From Myxococcales bacterium (GTDB lineage Bacteria > Myxococcota_A > Polyangia > Fen-1088), in assembly GCA_025350815.1 (NCBI GenBank), contig JANXXE010000218.1, forward strand, positions 19,574 through 83,573: DNA of 64,000 bases. Reading direction: 5' to 3'. The notes under the pieces were generated by a model, which saw only the letters and a program-made list of their open reading frames with translations, was not told where the DNA came from and did not search any database. Made by a program: the position numbers and the translations under genes. Shown piece after piece: positions 1-38,247 of this stretch; the first letter of the stretch is position 1; each line of letters starts with the position of its first letter.

Positions 1-485
1 TTTTCCCGGTGCGCGAGCTGCTGGACGCCTTCCGCCGGTTTCAGCCCGAGATCCTTGCGGCCGCGACCGCGATCGACACCATCTTGCGCGCATCGCCCGA
101 CAAGCTGGCCACGGCCGAACAGGCCTACGCCGCAGGCCCCCACGTTTCCGTTGACCACGCCATCATGGAGCCAGCCGCGGCGGCGAACCTATGCGCGGTC
201 ATCCCGGTCGATCTCAAGCGCATCGACGCGGGAAATCTGGATTCACTGGGCGCGCTGTTCCCGGCGGACGCCCAGGGCAACACCGCTTCGGGCCCGGCGC
301 TATTCCTGGATTCACAAGGCTGTTTCTCGACGACCAAGGGCCCCCTCGTGGCCGTTCTGGGACTGCAAAACGTGGTGGTGACGGTGGAGAATGACGTGGT
401 GCTGGTCTGCCACCGCGACCGCGCCGGGGACGTGCGTCCCGTCCTGGCCGCCCTCAAGACACGTTCGCGCGGGGATTTGCTGTGA
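1..485 (+). CDS. mannose-1-phosphate guanylyltransferase, short type (5'-truncated at window edge)
   Basis: Frame 3 is open from nt 3 to the stop at 483-485. The translation contains the SVDHAIMEP ... LDSLGALF ... VVLVCHRDRAGDVRPV stretch characteristic of the ManC/CpsB nucleotidyltransferase domain. It ends without a cupin (PMI) domain. Confidence 0.6.
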   Translation, partial: FPVRELLDAFRRFQPEILAAATAIDTILRASPDKLATAEQAYAAGPHVSVDHAIMEPAAAANLCAVIPVDLKRIDAGNLDSLGALFPADAQGNTASGPALFLDSQGCFSTTKGPLVAVLGLQNVVVTVENDVVLVCHRDRAGDVRPVLAALKTRSRGDLL

Positions 486-492
486 GTGTCGG

Positions 493-1188
493 GTGACGCC
501 CCCATCCCTCGCCTACACGCACGTCGTGTTCGACTTTGACGGAACCTTGGTCGATTCGCTGCGCACAAAGGTGTCGAACGCGGGCGAGTTATTCGCCGAA
601 CGCTACGGCGCCGACCGGGACCTGGTGGCGCGGCGCTATTACTTTCATTCCGGGATTGCACGAAGGCTGCTGTTCGAACGCATCGCCGAGGATGTCCTTG
701 CGCGCGGCTTGACCGAGACCGAATACCAGGATCTGGATCAGGTGTTTACACGTCTGAATCTGGAACGGGCCGGCGCCGCGCCGCCCTGGCCCGCGGTTCC
801 TGCGGTGCTTGCACAGCTGGCTGCGTCGGGGGTCACGATGGCGGTGTCGAGTTCAGCGCCCGAGCATGACCTGGCACCGCGCGTGCGGGCCTCAGGCCTC
901 GGGGACTTTTTCGGCCCTGTCCTTGCCTCGCGCGATGGGTTTCGCAAGGGGCCTGATCATGTCGCGTCGCTGGAAAAGCTGTGGAAAGTCGAACGCGGAC
1001 ACTTTCTCAGCGTCGGTGACGAACTGGCTGACGCGCGGCTTGCGGCTGCGGCGCGTGTTGATTGCGCGCTGGTCAGCCACACCATCACGCCCGCCGAGGC
1101 CGCCACTGGACCGTCGGAGGCGCGACCCCGCTTCATCTTGACGACCTTCGATGAACTGCTGACAATCGTCGGTTCACAAAACCCATGA
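493..1188 (+). CDS. HAD-superfamily hydrolase/phosphatase
   Basis: GTG start at 493 sits just after the upstream stop. The N-terminal VVFDFDGTLVDS (DxDGT) motif and a downstream SVGD...D motif place it in the HAD superfamily. The 391 ATG listed in the ORF track overlaps the upstream gene and is unlikely to be the start. Confidence 0.7.
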   Translation: MTPPSLAYTHVVFDFDGTLVDSLRTKVSNAGELFAERYGADRDLVARRYYFHSGIARRLLFERIAEDVLARGLTETEYQDLDQVFTRLNLERAGAAPPWPAVPAVLAQLAASGVTMAVSSSAPEHDLAPRVRASGLGDFFGPVLASRDGFRKGPDHVASLEKLWKVERGHFLSVGDELADARLAAAARVDCALVSHTITPAEAATGPSEARPRFILTTFDELLTIVGSQNP

Positions 1189-2633
1189 CCGCCACCACCG
1201 ACAGACCGATCGTCATCGCCGCGGGAACCGGTTTCGTGGTGCGGAACTACCTGCTTGGCAAGTGCCTGACCAAGCTGCAGGAACGGCACCCCGTCGTGGC
1301 GCTGTCACCCATGGCGGACAATCCCGGATTTCGCCAGGTCATGAACGAACGTGGCGTGCGCGTCGAGCCCCTGCCCGCGCCGCACGTCCACAAGTCCTGG
1401 GGCCGCGTCCGGCGCTGGCGCGGCCGCTTGCACGCGGGCTGGGTGGACAACGAAACCTGGGCATTGAAGTATTCCGCCGAAAAATATCTGGCTGCGAAAC
1501 CTGACTACAGCCCCACGCGCTTCGAAGCGTTCTACCGCGATCTGGCGCAGTGGACGGCCGCGCGCCTCGCCAGCCCGCGGACGTTGACGCTGATCGATCG
1601 CGCGGAGGATCACTATGCGCTGCAGACCGCGGACGCCGCGCAGTACCGCAAGCTGTTCGGCACCCTGCGCCCCAAGCTGGTGTTTTCACCCGCGCCGCTC
1701 ATTTCCGAGGAATGGCTGCCTATACAGGTCGCGCGGGAAATGGGCATCCCGACGGTGCTGTCCGTCTTGTCGTGGGACAATCTGTCCAGCAAGGGCCGCA
1801 TGCCCCTGCCTTGCTCGGCTTTTCTGGTCTGGAGCGAACACATGCGCCAGGAACTTCTTGCGTACTACCCCGATGTGCGCGCGGACCAGATCACGATCAC
1901 TGGCCCGCCGCAGTTCGATTTCTATTTCGATTCCGCCTTCCAGCAGACGCGCGCCGCCTTCTTCGCCTCACTGGGGCTGGATCCCGGGCGACCACTCATC
2001 GTCTACGCCGGGGTGACGCCCGGCCTGATGCCCGACGAGCCCCGGGTCGTCGAGGGCTTGCTGGCGGCCATCCGCAGCGGGGCTGTACCGGGGAACCCGC
2101 AGCTGCACCTGCGTTTGCACCCGAAGGACGGTGGCGAGCGGTATCAGGAGCTGCGTTCACGCTGGCCGGAGGTGACCTTCACCATTCCGGGACAAAGAAG
2201 CGGCGGCCAGCTGAAGAACTGGGCACCCGACAACGAAGATCTGCGGCTACTCGTGAACACCGTTCGTCACGGCGACGTTCATATCAACGTGGCGTCCACC
2301 ATGACCGTCGATGCGGCGATCATGGGGCGACCCGTGGTCAACGTGCGCTTCGACTTTCGTCCCCCGACAGCGCCGCGATCCTGGGGACTGTGTATTTACG
2401 ATCAAACCCACTACCGCCCGTTGCTCAAGACGAACGGCATGCGCGTTGCCGAAAGCCCCGAAGAACTGGTCCAACACGTGCGCACCTATTTGCAAAACCC
2501 GACGCTGGATGAGGCCGGCCGCCGCAAGATTGTCGAGCTGGTCTGCGGCAAGGTAGACGGCCACTCAGGCGAGCGAGTGGCCACAAGACTCGACGAGCTG
2601 TGCGGTGCGAGCCCCGCGCCGGGCCGGTCGTGA
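1185..2633 (+). CDS. GT-B-like polysaccharide biosynthesis protein, paralog A (family uncertain; TagF/Capsule_synth-like motifs)
   Basis: 482-aa ORF with ATGA overlap onto the HAD stop. Motifs SWDNLSSKG, GVTPGL, LRLHPKD and HGDVHINVASTM are all shared with the next gene. The protein looks soluble and Rossmann-like. The coding call is strong; the function call is weak. Confidence 0.5.
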   Translation: MTATTDRPIVIAAGTGFVVRNYLLGKCLTKLQERHPVVALSPMADNPGFRQVMNERGVRVEPLPAPHVHKSWGRVRRWRGRLHAGWVDNETWALKYSAEKYLAAKPDYSPTRFEAFYRDLAQWTAARLASPRTLTLIDRAEDHYALQTADAAQYRKLFGTLRPKLVFSPAPLISEEWLPIQVAREMGIPTVLSVLSWDNLSSKGRMPLPCSAFLVWSEHMRQELLAYYPDVRADQITITGPPQFDFYFDSAFQQTRAAFFASLGLDPGRPLIVYAGVTPGLMPDEPRVVEGLLAAIRSGAVPGNPQLHLRLHPKDGGERYQELRSRWPEVTFTIPGQRSGGQLKNWAPDNEDLRLLVNTVRHGDVHINVASTMTVDAAIMGRPVVNVRFDFRPPTAPRSWGLCIYDQTHYRPLLKTNGMRVAESPEELVQHVRTYLQNPTLDEAGRRKIVELVCGKVDGHSGERVATRLDELCGASPAPGRS

Positions 2634-4045
2634 CGGACAGAGTTCGACCGGGCGACAGAAGACCCCGGGTCGTGATGCTGGGCGCCGCCGGTTGGTCGGT
2701 GCGGAACTACCTTGCCAATCCTGGCTTCCAGGCTTTCTTGCGCGACAACGATGTAACGTTTTGGTCCCCCGCGTGGCAGGAACTGGCCAAACTGGACGCG
2801 TTCAAGGGGCGCGCGTCCTTTGCCCCCCTGTCCGTGTGGCAGCCGCAGGGCTGGCGCCGCCGGGGCCTGTCGTTCGTGCATGCCTATTACGGGTACAAGC
2901 AACAGAGTCGGAATCTGCTGCAGAAGCTTGAGATCTCTGCGGTGTCGGCCCGCCGAGCGGGCCTGTTGAAGGGGCTGTACGCGCGCGGCGTGCACCGCGG
3001 CGCCTGGCTTGGCAGCCAGGTTCTTCCGGTCTCAACGGTGGAAGCGGTCGAGAGGTTTCTGGCGGCCCACGCGCCCGGCCTGGTCGCCGAGTACGAGTCG
3101 CGTCTGCGGGCCAGCCAGCCCGACCTGATGTTTTCGACTACCCCGCAGGCCAATCACATGGAATGGCCGGCCGCCCTCGCCGCCAGACGCCTTGGGATCC
3201 CCGTCGTCGCCCAGATCTCATCCTGGGACAATCTCAGCTCGAAGGGGCACTTCGCCATCGAGTACCAGCGCTACCTCGCCTGGTCGGACGTGATGGTGCG
3301 TGACCTAATGCGGGATTTCGCAGTCGCCCGCGAGGACATCCAGGTCACGGGGGCACCGGGTTTTGATTTCTATTTCCAGCCGGAATTTCAGGAAAGCCGT
3401 GAGGCTTTTGCCGCGCGCCAGGGACTGGACCCCGCCCGGCCGATCATTCTTTACGCCGCCGTGACGCCCGGTCTGTTTCCGAACGAGCCGCACATGGTGG
3501 CCTTGCTACTGGACGCGATCCGAGCCGGCGACCTGCCCCGCGAGGCCCAGGTCCTGCTGCGCCTTCACCCCAAGGATCCCGGGACGCGCTGGCAGTCCCT
3601 TGACGGCCGTTACCCCGAGCTTCGCGCCTGCGTGCCCAACACCGCCGGCGATCTGCGCCAGTGGATTCCGGACGAAAGCATCATCCGCGACCAGGTGTCG
3701 TGCGTTCGGCACGGCGACGTGCATGTGAATGCCGCATCGACCATGATCATCGACGCCTCGATTCTCGACAGACCGGTGGTCAGCGTGGCGTTCGATGCCG
3801 TCGAACCCACCTTCTCGAAATACATTCGGGGCTATTACGACTACCCGCACCTGGTTCCGGTGGTCAGGGCGGGTGCCTCTCGTCTCGTGTCGACGGGGCC
3901 TGAGCTCATCGGCGAAATCGACAACTATCTACGCGATCCATCGCGTGATCGCGCGGGACGGAGGGCGATCGTCACCATGCAGACAGGGGATTGCGACGGC
4001 CAGGCGGCCGCGCGCGTCGCTGCGGCGCTGACGTCGATGCTATGA
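2600..4045 (+). CDS. GT-B-like polysaccharide biosynthesis protein, paralog B (tandem duplicate of 1185..2633)
   Basis: It has the same motif set (VRNYL, SWDNLSSKG, GVTPGLFPNEP, LRLHPKDPG, HGDVHVNAASTM) and matches the upstream gene along its whole length. The true start may be the GTG at 2630, giving a GTGA overlap, rather than the ATG at 2600. Confidence 0.5.
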   Translation: MRCEPRAGPVVTDRVRPGDRRPRVVMLGAAGWSVRNYLANPGFQAFLRDNDVTFWSPAWQELAKLDAFKGRASFAPLSVWQPQGWRRRGLSFVHAYYGYKQQSRNLLQKLEISAVSARRAGLLKGLYARGVHRGAWLGSQVLPVSTVEAVERFLAAHAPGLVAEYESRLRASQPDLMFSTTPQANHMEWPAALAARRLGIPVVAQISSWDNLSSKGHFAIEYQRYLAWSDVMVRDLMRDFAVAREDIQVTGAPGFDFYFQPEFQESREAFAARQGLDPARPIILYAAVTPGLFPNEPHMVALLLDAIRAGDLPREAQVLLRLHPKDPGTRWQSLDGRYPELRACVPNTAGDLRQWIPDESIIRDQVSCVRHGDVHVNAASTMIIDASILDRPVVSVAFDAVEPTFSKYIRGYYDYPHLVPVVRAGASRLVSTGPELIGEIDNYLRDPSRDRAGRRAIVTMQTGDCDGQAAARVAAALTSML

Positions 4046-4047
4046 AG

Positions 4048-5487
4048 TTACCTGACCGGAAGGTGCCGACGCCCCACGGACAGCGCCAGCCGGTCAGCGG
4101 GACTGGCCGGGCTCGGGGCCTTCTTGGGCGCAGCACCTGACAGCCCCCTTTGGGCCGCAACGAATCCCGCCAGCCCGATGCCGAACCACTGAATGTACGT
4201 GAATGCGACCGCGACCTGTGCCGCGGCCACCGATGCGAGGGTCAGGCCCAGCGCCAACCTGCCGAGGGGCCCCTGCTCGCGGCGAACCTGCCAAGCTCTC
4301 CTGATCGCGGCTATCAGGAAATACGCGAAGGCGAAGGCGGCGATAAAACCACCTTCGGCGGCGGTGCGCAGAAGCACGTTGTGGGCGCCCATTGCCTTTC
4401 CGCGCCATTTTGTGCCTAGATTTGCCTTCTCTGCAAAATTGTCAAACTCGGTGGCATAGGCACCCGCGCCGACACCCGTCATCGGCCTGTCGGTGACCAT
4501 GGCCCAAGCCACCTTCCACAAATCCAGCCGGCCCGTGAAGGCCGCGTCGGGGTCGTCTGCCACGCCGACTGTCCGCTCGATACCCCTTTCGATGTCGGCG
4601 TCGCTTAGGCCCTTGGCGCTGTAGAGTATTGCGGCGATGAAGGCCCCGGCAATTGCCAGCCTGACGAGGATTTGCTTCCCGCCTCCGCCGACGGCCATAC
4701 AAAGAACCACGATCAGCAGGGCCACGACGCTGCCGCGACAGACAGTCATGGTCGTTCCGATAGACAGCGCGACCGCAGAGCCTAGGTAAAGGAATCGCGG
4801 CCGCCCACGCGACGTGAGGCCCAGATACAGTGCCACCCCAGCCGGAACGGCGATGTGTATCGACGTATCGCCCCCAGCGAGCGTGGACTTCATGTTGCCC
4901 AGTCGCCCCGCATAGGACTCGGGAAGCAGCGCAACCAGGCAGGCCAACATGGCCATGCCACCCATCACCATTGCAGACAGGCCACGCCGCAGGGACGGCA
5001 GGTCGCGGAACAGGCACACTGGGCCCAGGTACGCCACCACGAGGCCCAGCATCGCGACGCTCGATGTGAAGCCCTCCCAGCGGTCAATTGACCACGTGAC
5101 ACTGACCATCATCCAAGCTGTCAGACCGAGAATCACTGCGACGGTCGAGTCCATCTTGCGCAACTGGGTGCGCAACCTGCCCATGTTGGTCAGCATTAGC
5201 AGCGCCACACCGTAAAAGAATGCGAGATATCTGGTGCTGCCCCACACGCGGATGAGAGGATCAATGGGAAGGGCCAGGAACAAGATGGCCTTGGCGCCTT
5301 CAGAATTGCGCGACAGAAGGTTCGCGAAGAAGACCAGATAGAGCGCCGCGGTCGCCCCCAATCCCACGTTGCTCCGCGACAGCCCGACCCCCTGTAAGAC
5401 CACGGCGGTGCCAAGAATCAGCAGAAAGGCCACCAACGCGCTGACCGGCGGTGTCTCGCTGGTGGCCGCGGGGCCAGCTTTTGCCAT
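4048..5487 (-). CDS. O-antigen ligase / Wzy-type polymerase family membrane protein
   Basis: About ten hydrophobic segments with a periplasmic loop. The Wzy_C-like signature ...GAHNVLLRTAAEGGFIAAFAF... is present. Confidence 0.65.
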   Translation of the reverse strand: MAKAGPAATSETPPVSALVAFLLILGTAVVLQGVGLSRSNVGLGATAALYLVFFANLLSRNSEGAKAILFLALPIDPLIRVWGSTRYLAFFYGVALLMLTNMGRLRTQLRKMDSTVAVILGLTAWMMVSVTWSIDRWEGFTSSVAMLGLVVAYLGPVCLFRDLPSLRRGLSAMVMGGMAMLACLVALLPESYAGRLGNMKSTLAGGDTSIHIAVPAGVALYLGLTSRGRPRFLYLGSAVALSIGTTMTVCRGSVVALLIVVLCMAVGGGGKQILVRLAIAGAFIAAILYSAKGLSDADIERGIERTVGVADDPDAAFTGRLDLWKVAWAMVTDRPMTGVGAGAYATEFDNFAEKANLGTKWRGKAMGAHNVLLRTAAEGGFIAAFAFAYFLIAAIRRAWQVRREQGPLGRLALGLTLASVAAAQVAVAFTYIQWFGIGLAGFVAAQRGLSGAAPKKAPSPASPADRLALSVGRRHLPVR

Positions 5488-6249
5488 TTAGGCCAATGCC
5501 CCCCGGCAAAGAACCATCAGTCCGCATCCGCCAACAGTATGGGCGGCAGCGTCGGGCGAAAGGAGAAACGCGCGGCGCCGCAGCTTGTCCACGACGCGCC
5601 CACGAGCGGTCGTCGACGGCCTCCTCCCCTCGGCCGACGAGGAGGTGTATTCCCACCCCAGGATCTCGAGGCCACAACCCCGGAGTAGGCGAAGCGCGGA
5701 CCAGCGGTGGTAGAAGTGCAGGTGCCCCACTTCTACGCGTTGCTGTTCCCGAAGGCCACGAAGCCGGGCCCAGACGCTTTCCTCCACGGGAATATGAAGG
5801 GCGATGAAGCGCGCCTTTTTGACGGCTTCGCGCAAAAAATCGTCGGGACGGACCAGGTGCTCGATCACGTCAAATAGCATCAACAGATCCGCCGCCGGGG
5901 CATCGACCAAAGTCCCCTGTATGACCCGCAACGAAGGGAACAGTCGCCCCGCAACTTCAACAGCGTCCCCAGCGGGATCTACACCCACCGCGTCCACGAT
6001 CAGGCCATGGCCAGCCAGGATCCGGATCGCTGCACTCAGAGCGGCGCCGCTGCCACAGCCGAGATCTACCAGACGGATCGCTGACGATGACCGTCCGAGA
6101 CACGCCAGAATCGTCCGCTCGTGTTCGAGAGCAACCCCGAGCTTTTCCGCTTTCCAGGGACCATCCTCTGCGTGCCAGGTCCCTCCCGTGTTGTCGAGAT
6201 AGGTCCCGTCGACGTATCCCTGCGGCAGGCAGTCGTCCACCGGCGGCAT
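5488..6249 (-). CDS. class I SAM-dependent methyltransferase
   Basis: Motif I VDLGCGSG and a DVIEH motif are present. The gene abuts the Wzy gene. Confidence 0.65.
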   Translation of the reverse strand: MPPVDDCLPQGYVDGTYLDNTGGTWHAEDGPWKAEKLGVALEHERTILACLGRSSSAIRLVDLGCGSGAALSAAIRILAGHGLIVDAVGVDPAGDAVEVAGRLFPSLRVIQGTLVDAPAADLLMLFDVIEHLVRPDDFLREAVKKARFIALHIPVEESVWARLRGLREQQRVEVGHLHFYHRWSALRLLRGCGLEILGWEYTSSSAEGRRPSTTARGRVVDKLRRRAFLLSPDAAAHTVGGCGLMVLCRGALA

Positions 6250-6259
6250 TGTGCCATCG

Positions 6260-8641
6260 TCAGGGTTTCCGCGCCAGCGACTGAAGTTGTTTCCGGGCCC
6301 TTACGACAAGGTCCGGCCGGCCGACCTCTTCTGCGTACTGGGCCAGGGCCTCGAGCGGTGACGGCCACCGGGGGTCAAGGTCGCTCGCTGTCTGAAATGC
6401 CAGAAGTGCGGCCGCGGTCTCCCCCATACCCTTCCAGATCCATGCCGCGCTAAGCTGGACCTGCGCCGCCTGCTCGGCCGTGGCCACGAGCCGCGCCCGT
6501 TCCAGGGCCTCTCGGGTTGTCTTTCTGTCTCGGGCGCCGCCAGCAGCCTGGGCGAGACCCAACCAATATCGGAGCTCGCCGGGCTTGGCGTCGGTCGCCT
6601 TGCCGATCTCCGTAACGGCGTCCTTGAAGCGCTGTTCACCAAGCGCCACACGCCCCCGCAGGAAGGCCGCTTCCGTCGGATTCACGGCGCCGAGCTCGTC
6701 CGCGACGCTTGCCAGGTCGTGCAGGTTCCCGGTGGCCTGGGCTCGCTGGGACAGGCGCATCAACGCCCTTTCGTTGCGCGGTTGCACTTCGAGCAACGCC
6801 CGATCGGCATCGTCCGCCAGGGAGCGCTTGCCCATCACGTCGAGGACCCGAACCAGCGCCTCCAGGCGTTCCCCCGGGTGGTCCGTCCCCACCGTCAGCC
6901 GGCTAAGTAGGTCGATGCGCGGATAAGAACGGACTATTTCTTGGATAATTTCATCCGGCTGCTCGGCGATTGTCGGCGCGCAGTCAAGCGCCAGCCGATA
7001 CTCGACCAGTGCCTGCTGGTGGTGTCCGGTCGCCCGGAACCACCGCGCGGTAAGCCGATGCGCTTCGAAGGAACGGGGATACAGGGTCAGGACGCGATTG
7101 ATCCAAGGTAAGGGTCGCCCGAGGGGCCGGTCACCGGCCATCAGACCGGCTTCCCGTTCGGCCGCCAGCAAGGGCAAAAAGTAGTCCGACGGATGATCCC
7201 GCAGTACCTGCTGCATCGTGCTGGTGATCCGATCGGGATCGTCCGAGCCCAGGGCCTGGCGCACATGCGCCTCCGCGGAAGGCATCTGTCTGCCCACGCC
7301 CAGGGCGAATCCAACCACGCCGATGGCCACAGACACCGCAATTAGGGCGCGCGGCATGCGGACGCCCGCGCTGGCATCACGCCGCGCGCGAGTGGCGAGG
7401 AGAGCGAGGGCGGGGATCGCGACACCTAGCACTTCGAGATTGAAGTCGAACAGGTTATGGAGAAACAGTGCCAGCATCCCACTGGCAACCGCCCAGTCGA
7501 TGGCACTGCCACGGCGAGCGAACAGGGCGCGCAGGCCATAAAGCCACCCGAGGACGAACAAGCCACCGACGATGAGACCGTAGTCCAGGACCAGCTGTAG
7601 CGGAACGTTCTCGGCATGCGTGAACGTGCGCATCATGGCCAGACGCTGATAGCGGGTATAGGCGAAGGGGAACGCCCCGCGGCCCCCGCCCACCAACGGA
7701 AAATCCGCCACGAACTGCCCCGCGGGACGCCAGATGTCGACTTTCACGGTACTGCGATCCGCAAACTCGTCGATGAAGAACCCGTTCCAGAAAATCCCCA
7801 TCAACAGCAAGGTCCCGATCAGCGCGAAGGGAACGACACTGGGGGCAACCCTCTTGTCGAGCATGCGGACCGCAAGGGGCAGCACGATCGCCACGATCAC
7901 CGCCACGGTACCGGCACGCGATCGAGCCAGCAGCCCGGCGGTCAGAATCAAGACTGTGGCCGCCGCCCACAACGCCCGCATTCTGGCGTCTCGGCTCTCC
8001 AGCGTCAGGCCCACGGCGGCAGCGCCGGTCAGCGCGAGAAATCCCGCCTGGTGATTCCCGTTGATGAAAGGACCCGCGACCTGGGTCGCACCGTGGGTCG
8101 AAAACAGGCCGTACAGGGTGTCGCTGGCGCCCGCCGCCAGGTGAAAAAGACCGACCAACGCCACACAAACGCCGGCCGCCGCCACGATCTTCAGGACCCG
8201 CTGGCGCGAACGTGCCGCGACCAAGTCACGGGCATTCTGATAGGCAAGCAGGGCAATTGCCAGCTTGGCCGCCTCAAGCCATGTGGCGGGCTGGTCCAGG
8301 CTGATGCTCATCCAGTCTGATCGCTGGCCAACCCCCAGGGGGCGCAAGGCAGCGCTTTGTGTCTCCCATGACGCGGGACTAATCAGGCGAAGCAAGCCGG
8401 GCGGCAGTGGCAACGCCTGAAAAACGGTGAACAAGCAAAGCGCGAAAAGTGCGCCCGCCAGGAGATCGAGGCCCGCCCGTTCGGACCGAGGAACCAGGTA
8501 GCGAGAGCCTGCGGTCAGCATCACGACCAACCCAACCGCGGCAATCACGGGGATATGCACCGTCCCCGCGAGCAACGGCACGGCGATGATGGTGCCGCCG
8601 ATCAGGAAGTATCGAATGGTCGAAAACGGAAGCGACATCAC
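6260..8641 (-). CDS. O-antigen ligase (Wzy_C) domain fused to C-terminal TPR-repeat domain
   Basis: The N-terminal ~430 aa are polytopic with the FTHAENVPLQLVLDYGLIVGG Wzy_C motif. The C-terminal ~350 aa are TPR-like helical repeats. Confidence 0.65.
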   Translation of the reverse strand: MMSLPFSTIRYFLIGGTIIAVPLLAGTVHIPVIAAVGLVVMLTAGSRYLVPRSERAGLDLLAGALFALCLFTVFQALPLPPGLLRLISPASWETQSAALRPLGVGQRSDWMSISLDQPATWLEAAKLAIALLAYQNARDLVAARSRQRVLKIVAAAGVCVALVGLFHLAAGASDTLYGLFSTHGATQVAGPFINGNHQAGFLALTGAAAVGLTLESRDARMRALWAAATVLILTAGLLARSRAGTVAVIVAIVLPLAVRMLDKRVAPSVVPFALIGTLLLMGIFWNGFFIDEFADRSTVKVDIWRPAGQFVADFPLVGGGRGAFPFAYTRYQRLAMMRTFTHAENVPLQLVLDYGLIVGGLFVLGWLYGLRALFARRGSAIDWAVASGMLALFLHNLFDFNLEVLGVAIPALALLATRARRDASAGVRMPRALIAVSVAIGVVGFALGVGRQMPSAEAHVRQALGSDDPDRITSTMQQVLRDHPSDYFLPLLAAEREAGLMAGDRPLGRPLPWINRVLTLYPRSFEAHRLTARWFRATGHHQQALVEYRLALDCAPTIAEQPDEIIQEIVRSYPRIDLLSRLTVGTDHPGERLEALVRVLDVMGKRSLADDADRALLEVQPRNERALMRLSQRAQATGNLHDLASVADELGAVNPTEAAFLRGRVALGEQRFKDAVTEIGKATDAKPGELRYWLGLAQAAGGARDRKTTREALERARLVATAEQAAQVQLSAAWIWKGMGETAAALLAFQTASDLDPRWPSPLEALAQYAEEVGRPDLVVRARKQLQSLARKP

Positions 8642-8695: not shown

Positions 8696-10936
8696 TTAGT
8701 TTGCGGCGACAGTCGGTTCGTCCGCCCGATAGGAATAACCATATGTGCGGTAATAGTCGTACCGGTAATACGATCCCCTGCTGAAATCCGCATCATTGAG
8801 GACCACGCCGAAAATTCGTGAGCCCAGTCGGCGCAACTGGCGGGATCCGTGCCGCAGCGACGCCTTGTGCGTGCGTCCGTGCCGGGCCACCAAAATGGTG
8901 CCGTCGACGACGCCTGACAGGATCGCAGCATCGGTAACCGCGCCGAGCGGCGGGCTGTCAAGCACCACCACGTCGAACATTTCGTTAAGCTGGGCCAGCA
9001 ATTCCATGAACCGGGTCGAGTGCAACAACTCGGCGGGATTAGGCGGGATGGGTCCCGCCAGGGCAACGGCGAGGTTCGGAACCGTCGTCTGCTCGACAAC
9101 ATCCGCGGGCACGCACTGCCCCGCCAGAACGTCGGTGAGACCGCGGGCGCCCTGCCCGGGGAAGATCTTGTGCAAGCGCGGCCGGCGAAGGTCCGTATCG
9201 ACGATGATGACCCGCTTGCCGCTCTGGGCGAGGATGATGGCCAGCGTGGTGGCCACGAAGGTCTTGCCCTCACTGGGGCCGGGGCTGGTGACCAGCAGTC
9301 GCTTCATGCTGGTGTCGGCCGACATGAACAGAAGGTTGGTGCGGATGGAACGCGCGGCTTCCGCAATGATCGAATGCGGATGTGTCGACGCGATCAGATC
9401 GAAGCCGTTTCGGTCCAGGGACTCCCGCAGCCCGTCGGATTCGCCTCCGCTTCCGTACTTGCTGTACTTCGTTCTCGCCAGAAACGTTTCGCGCCCCGCC
9501 AGCACGCCCAGAAGCGGCGCCCCTGACTCTTGCTGCGCGTCCTCGTAGCTGCGCACGGTGAAATCCAGAAATTCGATCAGGAACGTCAATGCAATCCCGA
9601 TCATGAAACCCAGCATCGCGGAGACGGCGATGATCATGCCGACCCGGGGACTGATCGGACCTGTCGGCCGCAGTGCCAGGTCCAGCAGCGAGATATTGTT
9701 GAAGTGCAGATAGCGCGCGAGATCGGTCTCCTTGCTGCGCGCGAGGACCAGGTCGAACAGCTTTGCGTTCTGCTCTTTTTCGCGCTCGAGCTTGTTGTAG
9801 TCGATCGCCAGCAGGCTCAGTTCGACGCCACGCTTATGCACATCGTCCAGCAGGACCTTCAGATTCTTCTCATTGCGAACCTTGGCCTGATACTCGGTTT
9901 CAATGCCGGTCATGAGGGACTTGACGTGTCCCTCGATTTGACCCTGCGTCTCCTTGATCTGCGCCTCGATGTTGCGAACGTTGGGATGTGACGGCCCGTA
10001 TTTGCTTTGAACCGCACTCAGGTCGATCAGTTCCTTGGCGTACTGGCTTTTCAGATTTTGCAACAGCATGTCGGCGGAGCGCTTGGTCCAACCGAGATCA
10101 TGTTCCTGAGTCTGCTTGAAGGCTTCGGTCAGAGCACCCTTTTCGGCCTCAAGCTGCAAGCGCTCGGTCTTGGTCTTCGTCAGAACCTCCGAGATGCTCG
10201 TCAGCTCGGTGCTGATGAGGTTCTGGCGGTCTTCCAGAGACACGGAAAGGACATTCCTGTCCTTCTTGAACTCGTACAGCTTTTGCTCGGACGCGGTGAC
10301 GGTCTCACGCAGCTTGTTCAGCTGCTCGGTCAACCAGCCGAGCGCGCCCTCCGTCGACAGCATGGCGCGTTCGAGGTTTCGGTCGATGAAGGCCTGCGCG
10401 ATCGTGTTGGACAGAAGTTCGGCCACTTCCGGATCGGTGTGCTTGATGTAGATGTTGACGAGGCGCGTGTCCTTGACCGGTTCGACGCGAATAGCCGCCT
10501 GCAGGAACTGCGCGGAATCGAGAATCGAATATTCGACCGGACCCGAGCCGGCCGGGGCGTTCCAGAAGCGCGGATCCTTGTGCAGATTCAGACGCTTGAC
10601 GACGACCTCAGCAAGGTCGCGGCTTTCCAGGATGCGGTACTGGGTCTCGAAATACTCCCGGTTGCTCCAAAAGGTCCCGGCGCCAATGTCGACGACTTCG
10701 TTGCCTTCGCGGCGGCCAAGAACGTTCGGAGCGCGCGGTTCAATCTGAATTGTGCACTTGGTCTGATAGATCTTCGGCTGCTTGAGGGCGTAGAAGAATC
10801 CGCCCGACGTCGCCACAGCCACGCACAGCAGAACCAGCCACTTGCGCTTCCAGGGGACCTTCAGTGCGCGGGTGAGGTTGACGACGGACTCTTCGTCCTG
10901 CGCCTGAATCGTTGCCGCCTCGTCGGTAGTTGCCAA
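8696..10936 (-). CDS. polysaccharide co-polymerase / tyrosine autokinase (Wzc/BY-kinase family)
   Basis: N-terminal Wzz-like domain with a long coiled coil and a second TM. C-terminal P-loop with Walker A SPGPSEGKT, Walker B VVVLDSPP and a Tyr-rich tail RGSYYRYDYYRTYGYSY. Confidence 0.85.
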   Translation of the reverse strand: MATTDEAATIQAQDEESVVNLTRALKVPWKRKWLVLLCVAVATSGGFFYALKQPKIYQTKCTIQIEPRAPNVLGRREGNEVVDIGAGTFWSNREYFETQYRILESRDLAEVVVKRLNLHKDPRFWNAPAGSGPVEYSILDSAQFLQAAIRVEPVKDTRLVNIYIKHTDPEVAELLSNTIAQAFIDRNLERAMLSTEGALGWLTEQLNKLRETVTASEQKLYEFKKDRNVLSVSLEDRQNLISTELTSISEVLTKTKTERLQLEAEKGALTEAFKQTQEHDLGWTKRSADMLLQNLKSQYAKELIDLSAVQSKYGPSHPNVRNIEAQIKETQGQIEGHVKSLMTGIETEYQAKVRNEKNLKVLLDDVHKRGVELSLLAIDYNKLEREKEQNAKLFDLVLARSKETDLARYLHFNNISLLDLALRPTGPISPRVGMIIAVSAMLGFMIGIALTFLIEFLDFTVRSYEDAQQESGAPLLGVLAGRETFLARTKYSKYGSGGESDGLRESLDRNGFDLIASTHPHSIIAEAARSIRTNLLFMSADTSMKRLLVTSPGPSEGKTFVATTLAIILAQSGKRVIIVDTDLRRPRLHKIFPGQGARGLTDVLAGQCVPADVVEQTTVPNLAVALAGPIPPNPAELLHSTRFMELLAQLNEMFDVVVLDSPPLGAVTDAAILSGVVDGTILVARHGRTHKASLRHGSRQLRRLGSRIFGVVLNDADFSRGSYYRYDYYRTYGYSYRADEPTVAAN

Positions 10937-11047: not shown

Positions 11048-12073
11048 CTACCGCCGCAGAGTCCGCCATCCGTGCCGGCGTCCCGACCTCCAGCGCTCGA
11101 CAACATCCTCGTAGACCTTGCGCAGACGCGCGGCGCTGACGTCGACCGAAAACGCGGCGCGGATCCGCTCGGGCCCGTTCGAGCGCCGGCCGGCCTCCAG
11201 CACGTCCTTGAGCGCGGCGGCCAGGGACTCGGGCTCGGGGCTGGCCACCAGACCGGGCGTGACGCCCTTCAGAACGTGCTCGACGTCACCAACCGGGACC
11301 GACACCACGGGCACGCCGCAGGCGACGGCCTCCTTGACGACGTTGGGCGAGCCCTCGTGCTGGCTGGTCAATAGCAGGCAGTCAGCGGCGTTCATGTGCA
11401 CCGGCATCAGCTCTGGCGGCACTTGCTCGATGGTCGCGAGACGGGCGGGAAGGCCCAGTTCCGCCAGACGGCGGACGGCCGCCTGGGCGCGGTCGAAACG
11501 CTTGATGGTGCGGTGCCGGGACGCCCCGAACAGCACGACGGTCTCCGCGGGATCCCAGCCAAGCTGCCTGCGGCATGCCGCCTTGTCGAGGGGGCGAAAG
11601 GCAGCCGTGTCGACACCCGCCGGAATGACGTACGCCCGCTGGCGGTCGCGTGCAAGCAGCAGCCCCTGCCGTAACTGTTCGGACCGCGCCACGATGGCGT
11701 CGGCGTTGGGCGCGGCCAGCTGAGAAAACACCGCTGCCAGCGCACCCACGACCTTTTCAACCGGCGGATCCCGCCGCGCCGGCCCCAGCAAGTCCGAGCC
11801 ACCAAAGGTCAGCACCAGCGGCACGGGGCAGCCGAGCGCCGAGGCGAACGCCCCGACGGAACCGAAGTAGACGTTGACCACGTCGGGGCGGCTGGCAGCG
11901 ACGTGGTCGCGAAAGGCGGCCCAGTCCTTGTGTGGCGTCCGCCGGTAGGCCGTGGCGTGCTCCTCCACATCCAGACCCAGCGCCCGCAGCGCCAGCACTT
12001 CACGCCGCACGAAGATGCCGGCGAAGGGTGAATCGGGCCGGGGCCAGATGTTCGACACAGCGAGGACTTTCAA
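11048..12073 (-). CDS. glycosyltransferase family 4 (GT-B)
   Basis: EGSPNVVKEAVACGVPVV matches the GT4 C-terminal E-x7-E region. The probable TTG start at 12073 (LKVLAVSNIWP) avoids a 44-nt overlap with the downstream gene; the track ORF starts at 12142. Confidence 0.7.
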   Translation of the reverse strand: MKVLAVSNIWPRPDSPFAGIFVRREVLALRALGLDVEEHATAYRRTPHKDWAAFRDHVAASRPDVVNVYFGSVGAFASALGCPVPLVLTFGGSDLLGPARRDPPVEKVVGALAAVFSQLAAPNADAIVARSEQLRQGLLLARDRQRAYVIPAGVDTAAFRPLDKAACRRQLGWDPAETVVLFGASRHRTIKRFDRAQAAVRRLAELGLPARLATIEQVPPELMPVHMNAADCLLLTSQHEGSPNVVKEAVACGVPVVSVPVGDVEHVLKGVTPGLVASPEPESLAAALKDVLEAGRRSNGPERIRAAFSVDVSAARLRKVYEDVVERWRSGRRHGWRTLRR

Positions 12074-12098
12074 GGCGCGGTCCTGAAGCTGGGCGGAG

Positions 12099-12824
12099 TT
12101 ACGGCCGGTCGCGCAGCCGCAGAAAGTATTCCGCCAGGACAAGATCCGCTTCCGTGTCGATGTTGGCGGAACGCTCGACCGGCATGATGTGGCCCAGACA
12201 GCGCGCGCCCTTGAAGGAATTCTTGTTCATAAGAACGTCGCGACGGGTGGCGTACAGGGCGCCGTTGACCATGTACACCTTGGGCAGGCTTTGGCGCGGC
12301 GGGTTCTCGATCTCGGACGGCTCATAGTCCAGCAGCATCCCGTCGGCGAACTTCTTCATCTTTCGCGGGTGCCAGTTGTCGACGTCGATGACACTGATGA
12401 TGCCGTCGGCCCCCTCGGCCGCCAGACGTCCGAGCGCCGTGACGAGATCCTCGGCTGACCGCAGCGGCGTCGTCGGCTGCAGCATGGCAACGTAGTCATA
12501 CGGACTGCCGGTCAACGCCTCCATCTGTTTGACGGCGTGCTGAATGGTCGGGACCGCCAGCGCGCCATCCGTGGCCAGATCGGCCGGCCGCAGGAACGGC
12601 ACCTCGGCGCCCGCCTCAAGGGCAATGTCGCGGATGCGCGGATCGTCCGTCGACACGACGACGTTGGCGAACATGCCCGACTTCTGGGCGGCCTCGACGG
12701 TGTACGCCAGCAGCGGGCGGCCACCCAGTGGCCTGATGTTTTTGCCCGGCACCCCCTTGGAGCCGCCGCGCGCCGGGATCACCGCCAAATTGCGCGGGCG
12801 TCCCCCCGTCGGGTGGACCGTCAT
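12099..12824 (-). CDS. acylneuraminate (nonulosonic acid) cytidylyltransferase, NeuA/CTP_transf_3 family
   Basis: N-terminal AVIPARGGSKGVPGKNIRPLGGRPLLAYT is the canonical CMP-NeuAc/CMP-Kdo synthetase motif. Start ATGA-overlaps the NeuB-like gene. Confidence 0.8.
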   Translation of the reverse strand: MTVHPTGGRPRNLAVIPARGGSKGVPGKNIRPLGGRPLLAYTVEAAQKSGMFANVVVSTDDPRIRDIALEAGAEVPFLRPADLATDGALAVPTIQHAVKQMEALTGSPYDYVAMLQPTTPLRSAEDLVTALGRLAAEGADGIISVIDVDNWHPRKMKKFADGMLLDYEPSEIENPPRQSLPKVYMVNGALYATRRDVLMNKNSFKGARCLGHIMPVERSANIDTEADLVLAEYFLRLRDRP

Positions 12825-13780
12825 GACAGGGCCTTGTCCTCCCAGTTGTAGATGAAGCCGCCCGGTACGGGCGCCTGACTTGCAAAGCGGCCCCGGTAAT
12901 AGTCCCGGTTCAGCAATTCTTCAGGCGACAGCGCGCGCACGGGCGAGCCGCGCATGGCAGAAGCCTCGGGGATCTCGCGCGCCACGTAGTCGGCGATTTC
13001 GTTGCGCGGGGCGCGGGCCCAACGGACAAGCTCGGCCAGCTGGCCCGGATCGATCGACACCGGACCATCCCTGGTGAGGTCGGGCGGCAACACGCGAAAG
13101 TGCCGTTCCACCACATCCGCCCCCATGGCCAGCGCCCCGATGGACGCCTTCAGTCCGTCGCGGGCCACCAGGCTGTGGTCGGAAAATCCCACACTGGGCG
13201 TGAACTGGCGCAGCCATTCCAGACGGGCCAGATGCATCTGATCGAGGGGCGTGGGGTAAATGGTCACGCAGTGAAGGAAGGTGAAGTTGGTCGGCGCCAG
13301 CACCTTCGCCGCAGCCGCAATCTCCTCGTCGAAGGTGGCGCCGGTGGAAACATAGATGTGCTTGAACCGGCCGACCAATTGGCGCAGCAACGGCAAGCTG
13401 GCGCAGTCGTAGCTCGGTACCTTGATCTCATCGTAGCCCAGCTTGACCACGTCATCGACGGCGGCGCGGCTGAAGACCGACGTCAGGGCGCCCGTGCCCC
13501 AGCGCTTGCATTCCTCGCGGAAGAACGCCTCGTCGTCGACCGACAACTCCAGCGGCTTCAGTCGATCATATTCGGCCGCGTAGGGCCGCTTGATTGCTTT
13601 CTTCGCGCCGCCCTCGACGATCCCTTCTTCAAACCTTTCCCGGCGTGTCAGCTCGCGCACGCGGATGGTCTGCACCTTGGCGAAATCGGCGCCAGCCTCG
13701 GCGACCGCATGAATCATCTCGCTTAGCAGCGTGCGGCCGCCACCGTGGTTCTGACAAAGCTCTGCGATTACCTTGGCCAA
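12821..13780 (-). CDS. N-acetylneuraminate synthase family protein (NeuB-like nonulosonic acid synthase, no SAF domain)
   Basis: IAELCQNHGG ... AGADFAKVQ matches the IAEIGxNHNG/KFQ core of the NeuB TIM barrel. At 319 aa it is shorter than classical NeuB. Confidence 0.7.
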   Translation of the reverse strand: MAKVIAELCQNHGGGRTLLSEMIHAVAEAGADFAKVQTIRVRELTRRERFEEGIVEGGAKKAIKRPYAAEYDRLKPLELSVDDEAFFREECKRWGTGALTSVFSRAAVDDVVKLGYDEIKVPSYDCASLPLLRQLVGRFKHIYVSTGATFDEEIAAAAKVLAPTNFTFLHCVTIYPTPLDQMHLARLEWLRQFTPSVGFSDHSLVARDGLKASIGALAMGADVVERHFRVLPPDLTRDGPVSIDPGQLAELVRWARAPRNEIADYVAREIPEASAMRGSPVRALSPEELLNRDYYRGRFASQAPVPGGFIYNWEDKALS

Positions 13781-15768: not shown

Positions 15769-15793
15769 CACAAACAAAGGATTTGAAAGCGTG

Positions 15794-16963
15794 ATGGCCT
15801 ATCCCCGCAAACCCCCACGACCGATCCAACCTGCGCGCCAGCTTTTCCCGGACGAGGACATCGCCTTCATCCAGGGCGAGACCGCACGTCTGCTGCGCGA
15901 ACGCGTGACCCTGGGCCCCTGGGTCGAGCAGTTTGAACGTCTCGGCGCCGCGTCGGCCGGAACCAAGCATGGCCTGGCCGTGAACAACTGCACGACGGCG
16001 CTGGAAATCATTCTGCGGTCCATCGGCGTCGGCCCTGGCGACGAGGTCGTGGTCCCACCGCAGACCTTCGTGGCCACGGCATTTGCCGTGCTTCACGCCG
16101 GTGCACGCCCCACGTTCTGCGAGATCAACCCCAAGACGCATTGTCTGGACCCGAAGAGTCTGGCGGCCACCATCACGCCAAAGACGCGCGCCGCAATCCT
16201 GGTCCACATGGGGGGCCTGGTCACGCCGGACTTGCCCGAGATTGAACGCGTCTGCAAGGCGCGCGGCATCGCGCTGGTCGAGGATTGCGCGCACGCGCAC
16301 GGCTCCCAGAAAGGCGGCCGACCGGCCGGGTCCATCGGCGTGGCCGGCGCGTTCAGCTACTACGCGACGAAGGTCCTGACCGCCGGTGAAGGCGGCCTTA
16401 TCACCACCAACGACGACAAGCTGGCCGAGGTGCTGCGCTGCTACCAGGCCCGCGGGCAGGACCTGTCCGTGCACGACGAAGAAGTTTTCATTCGCCCCGG
16501 GCGCAGTTGCCGCATGACTGCGTTTTCCGGTCTGTGCGGCGTCACCCAGTACAAACGCCTGGACGAGTTCGTCGCCCGCCGCAACCGAACAGCCGGTCTT
16601 TACGATCACGCCCTGCAAGCAGGCGCCCCGGCGGTCGAGCTTCTGCCCGTGCCGCAAGACACCAGGCACAGCTACTGGAAGTACACGATGAACCTTCCGA
16701 AAGGCGTCTCGCGACTGGACCTGCAGGCGCTGCTGGCCAAGGATTATGGCGTGCCCCTGACGTGGTCCTACTGGCCGCCCGTGCACCTGATGCCCGTGAT
16801 GAAGGACCTGTGTGGCGGCAAGCCGGGCGATCTTCCTATCACCGAGGACATCATGAGCCGCAACGTCAGTCTGCCCATGCACGCTGCGCTGGACGACAAC
16901 GACGCCACCTATATCGCCGACGCGTTCGTGGACGCCTTCGGTCGGATGCGGGGCGCCCGGTGA
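15794..16963 (+). CDS. DegT/DnrJ/EryC1/StrS family PLP-dependent sugar aminotransferase (no. 1)
   Basis: Whole-length resemblance to DegT-family enzymes, including the ...SFYATKVLTAGEGG... region around the PLP lysine. Confidence 0.8.
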   Translation: MAYPRKPPRPIQPARQLFPDEDIAFIQGETARLLRERVTLGPWVEQFERLGAASAGTKHGLAVNNCTTALEIILRSIGVGPGDEVVVPPQTFVATAFAVLHAGARPTFCEINPKTHCLDPKSLAATITPKTRAAILVHMGGLVTPDLPEIERVCKARGIALVEDCAHAHGSQKGGRPAGSIGVAGAFSYYATKVLTAGEGGLITTNDDKLAEVLRCYQARGQDLSVHDEEVFIRPGRSCRMTAFSGLCGVTQYKRLDEFVARRNRTAGLYDHALQAGAPAVELLPVPQDTRHSYWKYTMNLPKGVSRLDLQALLAKDYGVPLTWSYWPPVHLMPVMKDLCGGKPGDLPITEDIMSRNVSLPMHAALDDNDATYIADAFVDAFGRMRGAR

Positions 16964-17877: not shown

Positions 17878-17885
17878 CCCGCGGA

Positions 17886-18637
17886 TGAAGATCGTCGCCC
17901 ACCAGCCTGAGTACATTCCCTGGCTCGGCTATTTCGCCAAGCTCAGCGTGGCGGATGTCTTCTTCTTTTCGGACCACCTCCAGTACGCGATCAAGGATTT
18001 CCAGAACCGGAACAACATCCTTCAGGGCGGCGGCAAGCAGATGCTGTCCATTCCGGTGCTGACCAAGGGGCGCGTCGACCAGGCCATCCGCGACGTCGAG
18101 ATCGAGGCCAACACGCCCTGGGCGCGCAAGCACATGCTGACCCTGCGCCACGCCTATCACCGGCACCCGCACTTTTCGCGCTACGCACCCCGCCTGGAGG
18201 AAATCTACGCCCGCCGTTGGGACAGGCTGTGCGAACTCAACGTCACGCTGATCAAGCAGATCGCCGAATGGTTGGACATCAAGGTCCCGATGCGCCTGTC
18301 GTCCGAGCTTTCGCTGGTCGAGCACAAGACGCGGTTGCTGATCGAGATGTGCGAAAAGTGTCCGGCCGACACCTTCGTCTCGGGCCTGGGCGCCGCCGCT
18401 TACGTCGACCCTGCGCTGTTCGCCGAAAAACACCTCAATCATCTTTTCTTCCGATTCACCCACCCGACCTATCCCCAGAAGGGGGCGACGTCGGGCTTCG
18501 TGTCCCATCTGTCCGCGCTGGATCTGCTGTTCAACTGCGGTCCGGACGCCGCCCTGCTGTTGCAGCAAGCCGTCGCTGCGTCGACCTTGACGGCGGAGGT
18601 TCCGTCGGCACCCGTGACCGCCGATCCGGCGCCCTGA
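17886..18637 (+). CDS. WbqC-like family protein
   Basis: N-terminus MKIVAHQPEYIPWLGYFAKL... is typical of WbqC-family proteins found in O-antigen clusters. The ATG at 17886 follows the upstream stop. Confidence 0.65.
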
Positions 18638-22711: not shown

Positions 22712-22774
22712 TGCCCCGGATTGTAGTCCGTCCAGCCAGTCGTCGCAATGTCGCGGCAATGTCGCGGGGCTCCT

Positions 22775-38181: not shown

Positions 38182-38247
38182 TATGGCAGCTCCCTCTCGG
38201 CGTCTAGGGGCATATGCCTCGCCCACAGAGTCTTTGTGAACGTCATC

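Follow-up and report, generated by a model that had tools for sequence, protein, structure and literature searches.

Two adjacent genes, A and B, near the start of a 64,000-nucleotide stretch of DNA from a Myxococcales bacterium (contig JANXXE010000218.1; the whole stretch is called the window below), encode enzymes of the GT-B glycosyltransferase fold that are probably cytidine monophosphate (CMP)-ulosonic-acid transferases. They would form a new and large branch of the TagF superfamily and would act on the lipid-linked repeat unit of a Wzy-dependent polymer. Judging from sequence comparisons, the hallmarks of the clade to which they belong are invariant S-W-D-N, R-x-x-P, and S-T motifs, and the clade is a remote branch from the TagF/TarL superfamily. 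Most of the family loci whose surroundings could be inspected lie within gene cassettes for nonulosonic acids (NulOs), and the named family nearest to A and B is one of NulO transferases.

1185-2633, + strand: gene A, 482 amino acids (aa); A-type GT-B enzyme from the 'SWDN' family, which has no characterised member
2600-4045, + strand: gene B, 481 aa if the earliest GTG in frame is taken as the start (longest open reading frame, ORF); divergent B-type member of the same family

Family size and genomic neighbourhood

In a full HMMER scan of 1.84 billion representatives, 12,169 proteins passed a threshold of E<=1e-3; 6,567 of them were left at E<=1e-10 and 3,460 at E<=1e-30, and the last figure, counted in clusters at 50% identity, is taken as the minimum family size. 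In GTDB representative genomes, 346 family loci were found, for the most part in Acidobacteriota, Planctomycetota (Pirellulaceae), Chloroflexia, Gemmatimonadota, and Verrucomicrobiota.

The neighbourhoods of 80 representative-genome loci were sampled, and in 54 of them the upstream side of the family gene is covered for 8 kb or more. A co-directional CTP_transf_3 homolog is found within 10 kb upstream in 44 of these 54 loci (81%), typically 2-7 kb off, and the same interval contains Epimerase_2 in 43 loci, an Asn-synthase-like amidotransferase in 29, and NeuB in 27. A cytidylyltransferase downstream of the family gene was seen in only 4 of the 80 loci. Cytidylyltransferases of the CTP_transf_3 type are present in a few copies per genome; because of this low base rate, the linkage of 81% appears far above chance, the figure being set against the base rate rather than against a control family. 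The cassette of Novipirellula may serve as an example, in which NeuB with a SAF domain is followed by Epimerase_2, CTP_transf_3, the Asn-synthase-like gene, an ABC ATPase, a methyltransferase, the family gene, a GT4 (GT, glycosyltransferase), and a GT2. In the plasmid of Rhizobium sp. WL3 (NZ_CP042825.1, annotated by PGAP), a NeuB family gene, KpsF, a glycosyltransferase, neuC, and an acylneuraminate cytidylyltransferase precede a gene labelled 'hypothetical', which is a family member (196 bits to the family hidden Markov model, HMM). Upstream of this NulO cassette (positions 391-6240 of the plasmid locus, L090), there are four further consecutive 'hypothetical' genes of approximately 450-510 aa, of which three are mutual distant relatives and two of those weakly match the family HMM (43 and 17 bits); by sequence, the four appear to be a tandem array of divergent GT-B genes.

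The initial annotation had suggested that the paired enzymes add residues such as a phospho-linker or a sugar similar to 3-deoxy-D-manno-oct-2-ulosonate (Kdo). The Kdo-like guess fits the context of CMP-ulosonic-acid genes. The phospho-linker finds no counterpart in the locus, since no genes of the TagD or TarI/TarJ type, which supply polyols activated with cytidine diphosphate (CDP), were found among the locus genes scanned.

Fold and family assignment

Both proteins are confidently modelled as GT-B enzymes, which bears out the resemblance first noted. The AlphaFold2 model of A has a predicted local distance difference test score (pLDDT) of 95.9 and a predicted template modelling score (pTM) of 0.93 and consists of two Rossmann domains; that of B (pLDDT 92.4, pTM 0.90) has the same fold, with residues 1-15 disordered. 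Foldseek against the Protein Data Bank (PDB) returned generic GT-B matches only, with template modelling scores of ~0.5; of the transferases, it is TarL and TagF that A and B match best, by structure as well as by profile. The N-terminal domain of A carries one additional element:

1392-1667, + strand: helical insertion in the N-terminal domain of A, approximately residues 70-161 (~90 residues), helices in the model

This insertion is basic and rich in aromatic residues (16 K+R and 14 W/F/Y in 92 residues) and is the part of A most diverged from B, left unaligned by BLASTP. On the basis of the model, it is a candidate membrane- or acceptor-binding element.

Only three models of the curated libraries match A and B. 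The NCBIfam BFO_1060 family glycosyltransferase (NF046086) is the nearest named family, with 57.9 bits for A (E 9e-16) and 53.2 bits for B (E 2.5e-14) against a cutoff of 200 bits; it is matched by 72 of the 73 family members sampled, none of which comes near the cutoff (best E 1.4e-23). PF04464 (Glyphos_transf), with its gathering score of 22.1, is reached marginally, by A with 22.8 bits and by B with 26.9 bits, and the matches (A 214-275, B 380-476) cover only fragments of the 367-position model. The third, TIGR04396 of NCBIfam, gives 30 bits against a cutoff of 125. When the family profile is compared with PDB sequences, TarL (8va1) is found at E 1.4e-3, in the C-terminal domain, whereas phmmer searches of the same sequences with A and with B gave nothing meaningful. 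A sub-profile of residues 160-345, aimed at a match with the TagF N-domain around SWDN, retrieved only GlgM (GT4) and spurious HMG-box matches from the PDB; the N-domain region 210-270 does resemble GT4-type enzymes such as GlgM. No GT4 or GT1 Pfam model matches A or B at threshold.

The resemblance to TagF that had been proposed for the two proteins is thus real but remote, with PF04464 barely above threshold and the TarL match in the C-terminal domain, and it does not amount to close membership. The likeness to KpsC/KpsS (Capsule_synth) could not be upheld: PF05159 gives no match at E<=1 for A or B, and the fold also differs, as the reduced, displaced N-terminal Rossmann domain of the KpsC-type modified GT-B fold is absent from A and B. 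Similarly, the GT38, GT52, and GT80 sialyltransferases are neither matched by sequence or profile nor the closest fold. The first impression that no family matches cleanly therefore holds, in that there is no curated assignment and all homologs are named 'hypothetical'. Literature searches on TIGR04396, on TagF-like enzymes with NulO, and on glycerophosphotransferase with nonulosonic acid retrieved no account of this clade.

Conserved residues and comparison with TarL

The three motifs by which the pair had been recognised are present in both A and B:

1770-1796, + strand: SWDNLSSKG of A (S196-G204), with D198 at nucleotides 1776-1778
3221-3247, + strand: SWDNLSSKG of B
2109-2129, + strand: LRLHPKD of A (L309-D315); R310 and P313 family-invariant, H312 clade-specific
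3557-3577, + strand: LRLHPKD of B; H323 is the equivalent of H312
2268-2303, + strand: HGDVHINVASTM of A, spanning H362-M373, which comprise a loop and the N-terminus of a helix; HGDVH(I/V)N part at 2268-2288
3710-3745, + strand: HGDVHVNAASTM of B, with the HGDVH(I/V)N part at 3710-3730

Conservation was calculated over 274 family modules. D198 is conserved in 100% of them, S196 and W197 in 98%, and N199 in 96%; in the second motif, R310 reaches 98% and P313 91%, and H312 only 53%; in the third, S371 reaches 98% and T372 92%. Positions conserved to at least 90% are A183, S196, W197, D198, N199, W216, G240, P242, and F244 in the N-domain, with no histidine among them, and R310, P313, S371, T372, P383, H409, and R446 in the C-domain. 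All 16 are kept in B. In the 80 representative-genome loci, the position of H312 is mostly occupied by A, V, C, S, or M. The histidine of the HP pair was considered as a marker of NulO-linked members and ruled out, as 43 of the 53 loci without it still have the cytidylyltransferase cassette.

For comparison with TarL, a full-length Staphylococcus ortholog was rebuilt from the flanking DNA of one locus (L087, GCA_900458875.1, positions 8870-10558). In this tarL ortholog, codon 297 is an in-frame stop and V298-W299-H300 come next; the stop may reflect a pseudogene or a sequencing error. With hhalign, the family profile matches TarL with a probability of 94.6% (E 7e-8) in the C-terminal domain only (A 211-468 against TarL 330-558), pairing GPPQFD of A with GVPRTD of TarL, IVYAGVTP with ILFAPTFR, LRLHP with FKMHP, HINVASTM with LISDYSSL, and VRFD with YAFD. 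In this alignment, HGDVHINVASTM of A lies opposite ITDILISDYSSL of TarL, and the loop and helix N-terminus H362-M373 are predicted from sequence to bind the nucleotide phosphate. R310, H312, and P313 of A are paired with K431, H433, and P434 of TarL.

In TarL, H433 contacts the CMP alpha-phosphate and is the proposed proton donor to the departing CMP, whereas the role of catalytic base falls to H300 (H444 in TagF), which stacks on W299; mutants of H300 and of H433 are both inactive (PMC10901376). Because hhalign pairs H312 with H433, the histidine of LRLHPKD, which the initial annotation had proposed to compare with the catalytic histidine of TagF, is the counterpart of the second TagF histidine and not of the base (H300/H444), and its conservation across the family is limited, as noted above. 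The position of the base might instead be taken by D198, which sits at the end of N-domain strand 190-193 in the model of A. The family segment '...VLS-W-D-N...' and the TarL segment '...IQV-W-H-A...' each end the strand before one that is aligned with confidence (AFLVWSE and AFVSSE, respectively); since the W-D and W-H motifs thus close a topologically matching strand, this arrangement suggests D198 as a candidate catalytic base.

Paralogy, gene starts, and multi-module relatives

A and B are uninterrupted, neighbouring ORFs and clear paralogs (BLASTP of A against B: E 6e-86, 45% identity over 310 aa), as initially annotated. Their third-position GC content (GC3) is 0.80 and their second-position GC content 0.48-0.49, as expected for real genes in a sequence of 65% GC. 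The claim that they align over their full length holds for the structures, which have the same topology in the two AlphaFold models, but not for BLASTP, which covers the C-terminal two-thirds and leaves out the N-terminal ~150 residues. Overall identity is 34-36%, and the region of approximately residues 40-150 is strongly diverged.

Three start codons can be considered for B, namely GTG 2600 (34-nucleotide overlap with A), GTG 2630 (471 aa; a GTGA overlap with the TGA stop of A), and ATG 2675 (456 aa), the last being the choice of a public gene caller. The first beta-strand of B (residues 23-27 of the 481-aa form) aligns with that of A and with the longer N-terminus of the B ortholog P0030; as ATG 2675 would remove this strand, B probably starts at GTG 2630 or GTG 2600, and an overlap of B with A, or coupling to it, is therefore plausible. 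At the other end, the stop region of the gene for a hydrolase of the HAD family overlaps the start ATG of A as ATGA. Given the overlaps at both junctions, the HAD gene, A, and B form a tightly packed co-directional unit.

Orthologs of A in other organisms are 53-70% identical to it, compared with ~35% between A and B, and B has a single close ortholog (P0030, 70%). Each copy is thus nearer to its orthologs elsewhere than to the other, so A and B are old paralogs lying side by side rather than the product of a recent tandem duplication, as the initial wording implied. That one copy is a decaying duplicate (pseudogene), or that their resemblance is incidental, can be regarded as effectively refuted. 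Gene callers do disagree on the start of B, and very few orthologs of the B type exist, but the similarity between the copies, the open reading frame of B with its GC3 of 0.80, its retained conserved residues, and its confident model all speak against decay, and the 70% ortholog in another organism implies purifying selection on B.

A-type orthologs (P0007 and P0005) occur as single copies in two other contigs (L002 and L085), where they directly adjoin orthologs of three genes of the locus in which A lies, i.e., the short NeuB (57-62% identity), the cytidylyltransferase here called CTP1 (68-69%), and a dehydrogenase of 571-574 aa (44-59%). Because of this adjacency, A can be tied to the NeuB/CTP1 donor pathway. 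The SAF-less NeuB, CTP1, and the dehydrogenase form a module kept in three unrelated contigs (the window; L002, 5063-10004; L085, 11467-15939), and this module may make a non-canonical ulosonic acid.

A second family copy is present within the same locus in L002 and L004, and the best matches include polypeptides with two family modules (P0172, P0174, P0176, P0177, P0188, and P0190) and one with three (P0184). P0172 belongs to a complete NulO cassette, and P0184 has an ABC-transporter ATPase on one side and a Capsule_synth (KpsC/S-like) gene on the other. In the latter locus (L089, 8860-10967), P0184 is flanked by a HAD_2 hydrolase and the Capsule_synth gene; as a HAD_2 hydrolase also precedes A, it may be a recurring partner. 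The family module is also fused to an Asn-synthase-like amidotransferase (L002, 15420-18692), to a GT4 (P0173), and to a methyltransferase (P0045), and two proteins (P0287 and P0198) carry unidentified N- or C-terminal extensions of ~270-300 residues. Multi-module and GT4-fused architectures appear, from sequence, to be the behaviour of a transferase or polymerase. By analogy with the dual modules of KpsC, they can be read as Rosetta-stone evidence for several modules acting in one pathway. The N-terminal domain is the part that has diverged between A and B, which fits a difference in acceptor or linkage and, by analogy with Tannerella forsythia (see below), also a difference in ulosonic donor.

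Proposed function and alternative explanations

In the mechanism that we infer, from the choice of donor and the part played by D198 to the contact of the insertion with the membrane and the way in which A and B share the work, the TagF-like C-terminal domain would hold the CMP portion of its donor, a CMP-activated 3-deoxy-2-ulosonic acid of the nonulosonic type. The donor phosphate would be contacted by R310, H312, and the helix N-terminus at S371-T372, and the acceptor hydroxyl would be activated at the domain cleft by Asp198, the invariant residue of SWDN. The ulosonic acid would be transferred to an undecaprenyl-linked repeat unit at the cytoplasmic face of the membrane, where the basic, aromatic helical insertion would provide contact with membrane and acceptor, and the repeat unit would then be polymerised and exported by the Wzy, Wzc, and Wza genes of the locus. 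A would use the donor made by the SAF-less NeuB and CTP1. B, with its diverged N-terminal domain for acceptor or sugar specificity, might add a second ulosonic residue in another linkage or to another acceptor, or it might use the product of a second cytidylyltransferase, CTP2.

Several points weigh against this reading. The neighbourhood cannot separate a user of the NulO donor from an enzyme that glycosylates a NulO-containing acceptor, and 10 of the 54 loci have no NulO genes within 10 kb. The family has no characterised member, every named homolog being a 'hypothetical protein', and the BFO_1060 scores of A and B (~58 and ~53 bits) amount to about a quarter of the cutoff. For the BFO_1060 orthologs of T. 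forsythia, the evidence comes from knockout, complementation, and mass spectrometry, with accumulation of the CMP-sugar in the mutant and no in vitro assay (PMC5420450), and in B. subtilis SpsB, a TagB-domain protein encoded beside a legionaminic acid (Leg) pathway, is dispensable for Leg transfer (PMC7439481). The equivalence of D198 and TarL H300 has no hhalign support: permissive runs (-mact 0.01, -glob) pair W299-H300 with W177-L178, but they drop the family strand that carries SWDN and were judged unreliable; as hhalign could not confirm the pairing, it is one that we infer. Finally, the ulosonic-acid pathway of the window is atypical, in that the equivalog cutoffs are reached neither by NeuB nor by the two cytidylyltransferases and no hydrolysing epimerase of the NeuC/LegG/PseG type was detected in the window.

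Three other functions have to be weighed against ulosonic-acid transfer. A and B could be ordinary GT-B enzymes that use a sugar activated with uridine or guanosine diphosphate (UDP or GDP) and act at the ulosonic-acid residue or beside it, for instance to attach the sugar that comes after it, which would explain their company with NulO cassettes. We regard this as unlikely, although co-occurrence with NulO cassettes is blind to the difference between donor and acceptor specificity, the N-domain region 210-270 is GlgM-like, and a ManC-like nucleotidyltransferase and a dehydrogenase stand in the operon of A. The C-terminal domain aligns specifically with TagF-type enzymes, from which CMP is the leaving group, in the K/R-x-H-P and S-S/T elements; the best curated match is to a NulO-transferase family, and it extends to nearly all members sampled, whereas GT4/GT1 models stay below threshold and canonical GT4 genes are already available in the same loci. 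It is more doubtful still that A and B are true TagF-like phosphotransferases, which would add polyol phosphate or sugar phosphate from a CDP donor as a phosphodiester linker or side chain. PF04464 formally exceeds its gathering score for both proteins, TarL and TagF head the transferases in structure and profile comparisons, and H312 is the equivalent of the essential TarL H433 (PMC10901376). That chemistry, however, requires two invariant histidines (PMC10901376), while the family N-domain has the invariant S-W-D-N in place of a conserved histidine and the H433 equivalent is a histidine in just over half of the modules; moreover, the cytidylyltransferases linked to the family are of the CTP_transf_3, CMP-ulosonic type, and the locus has no TagD or TarI/TarJ-type genes.

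That A and B are 2-epimerases or hydrolases that process nucleoside diphosphate sugars, i.e., analogues of NeuC, LegG, or PseG, is very improbable. Such a role would supply the hydrolysing step that the pathway of the window seems to lack; A and B nevertheless combine no match to the UDP-GlcNAc 2-epimerase profile (PF02350) with the part of sole epimerase or hydrolase in the pathway. Transfer of an ulosonic acid from a CMP donor remains the function that we favour. A wider proposal, which we put forward tentatively, is that the SWDN clade is an undefined glycosyltransferase family in which the TagF scaffold has exchanged its catalytic histidine for an invariant aspartate and phosphoryl transfer for ulosonic-acid transfer, and that it represents the main missing class of NulO transferases in environmental bacteria (the phyla named as rich in the clade are Acidobacteriota, Planctomycetota, Chloroflexota, and Gemmatimonadota). 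The A-type branch of the clade would serve a non-canonical ulosonic acid made with the SAF-less NeuB and the 571-aa dehydrogenase, and tandem or fused modules would build alternating linkages, as KpsC does.

The enzymes that attach Leg, pseudaminic acid (Pse), and related sialic-acid-like sugars to bacterial polysaccharides were described as largely unknown in papers of 2017 and 2020 (PMC5420450, PMC7439481); GT107, GT118, and GT140, the families added later, differ in having a modified fold (PMC12887879). Thousands of unnamed proteins, found inside NulO cassettes in 81% of the testable loci, make a concrete, clonable set of candidates, for which D198, R310, and S371/T372 provide a mutational hypothesis. 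If the proposed function is true, surface-glycan loci of soil and aquatic phyla could be annotated better, new glyco-engineering tools for bacterial sialic-acid analogues would become available, and it would be seen how a teichoic-acid-type phosphotransferase scaffold has been converted to glycosyl transfer.

Comparison with known systems

The closest functional parallel is offered by the BFO_1060 orthologs Tanf_01245 and TFUB4_00887 of T. forsythia, which are needed to add the terminal Pse or Leg derivative to an O-glycan (PMC5420450). Like A and B, they are TagB/TagF-type GT-B enzymes encoded beside CMP-nonulosonic-acid pathways. Sialyltransferase-type HP, D/E-D/E-G, and DXD motifs have been described for them (PMC5420450); of these, the HP motif is present in A (312-313) and B (323-324), whereas D/E-D/E-G is absent from both and DXD from A. 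The N-terminal part, in which Pse-specific and Leg-specific enzymes are unlike, has been proposed to determine the sugar that is used (PMC5420450), and this variability parallels the divergence between A and B. The acceptor in T. forsythia is a protein O-glycan, in contrast to the Wzy-dependent polysaccharide assumed here.

With TagF (3L7I) and TarL (8VA1), A and B share the GT-B fold and the TagF-type CMP-binding C-terminal domain, and only ~300-325 of 482 residues superpose. The base histidine (H300/H444) is absent from the family, which has an invariant W-D in what would be the matching loop, and the second histidine (H433 in TarL, H584 in TagF) is not conserved across it. CDP-polyol genes are likewise absent from the vicinity of A and B. 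In addition, the N-domain of A has the ~90-residue helical insertion and lacks the Ig-like N-terminal domain of TarL.

Retaining Kdo/Pse transferases that have a modified GT-B fold and use CMP-ulosonic-acid donors are known in KpsC/KpsS (GT107, Capsule_synth), WbbB (GT99), KpsS1 (GT118), and KrkA (GT140). KpsC combines two tandem modules of different linkage specificity (PMC12887879), to which the pair of A and B and the fused multi-module relatives are conceptually similar. The GT38 polysialyltransferase and the GT52 and GT80 sialyltransferases combine a GT-B fold and a CMP-NulO donor with an HP motif like that of A and B. A carboxylate is the likely base in the GT80 and GT52 mechanisms, as it would be in A and B. 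Taken together, A and B depart from the TagF-like enzymes in the histidine pair and the CDP-polyol genes, from BFO_1060 in score, and from KpsC/KpsS in both profile and fold, but in mechanism they still resemble the TagF-like and BFO_1060 enzymes.

The polysaccharide locus and other features of the window

According to its gene content, the first ~26 kb of the window is a Wzy-type polysaccharide locus. Annotations are from Pfam or other profile scans:

Upstream of the ManC-like gene, outside the window, in the longer public contig: UDPG/GDP-Man-type dehydrogenase, 571 aa
3-485, + strand: ManC-like sugar-1-phosphate nucleotidyltransferase, 3' part (369 aa in full)
493-1188, + strand: HAD-family hydrolase, 231 aa by public call; Pfam HAD_2/Hydrolase; same operon as A
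4048-5487, - strand: Wzy_C protein (Pfam)
5488-6249, - strand: methyltransferase (Pfam)
6260-8641, - strand: Wzy_C+TPR protein (Pfam), with a C-terminal extension of several hundred residues with TPR repeats
8696-10936, - strand: Wzc-type polysaccharide copolymerase (PCP)/tyrosine kinase (Pfam)
11048-12142, - strand: GT4 (Pfam)
12099-12824, - strand: CTP1, CMP-ulosonic-acid synthetase (CTP_transf_3); Pfam 84 bits, PseF model 160 bits against a cutoff of 205.7
12821-13780, - strand: NeuB-family ulosonic-acid synthase, atypically short with 319 aa and without SAF domain; Pfam NeuB 159 bits
13745-15103, + strand: GT4 (Pfam)
15791-16963, + strand: DegT aminotransferase (Pfam)
17054-17680: ORF of 208 aa with no Pfam match
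17705-18637, + strand: WbqC (Pfam)
Within 18217-19797, + strand: NTP_transf_5 ORF (PF14907, 'uncharacterised nucleotidyltransferase'), between WbqC and DegT
19794-21005, + strand: DegT aminotransferase (Pfam)
20982-22091, - strand: WecB, non-hydrolysing 2-epimerase; NCBIfam 287 bits against a cutoff of 210
22115-22759, - strand: Wza-like exporter (profile scans)
22775-23497, - strand: CTP2, second CTP_transf_3 cytidylyltransferase, ~40% identical to CTP1-type enzymes
23457-24275, + strand: PIG-L deacetylase (profile scans)
24391-26367, + strand: PglF-like 4,6-dehydratase (profile scans)

For the NeuB of the window, the scores fall far short of both equivalog cutoffs, that of NeuB and that of PseI. 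CTP2, which adjoins the PIG-L deacetylase and the PglF-like dehydratase, matches IspD with 19.5 bits against a 27-bit cutoff, and no second NeuB that might go with it is present in the window, which holds two cytidylyltransferases and one NeuB. The two Wzy_C proteins (O-antigen ligase/polymerase-type) have 9-10 transmembrane-like segments. Neither a Wzx flippase nor a Bac_transf priming transferase was recognised among the window genes scanned.

Between 24000 and 42000, GC content falls to ~0.60-0.62, compared with 0.65-0.68 elsewhere in the window. This low-GC stretch contains three large TPR proteins (30353-37322) and four ORFs without a Pfam match (26386-27720, 27793-28440, 28566-29984, and 37342-38316). 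An isolated FHIPEP gene (FlhA/type III export) is located at 40675-42942 (+ strand), beside L21 and Obg, with no other flagellar or type III secretion genes among the window genes scanned. Near the end of the window, a 543-aa caspase-like Peptidase_C14 protein is encoded at 62152-63783 (+ strand).

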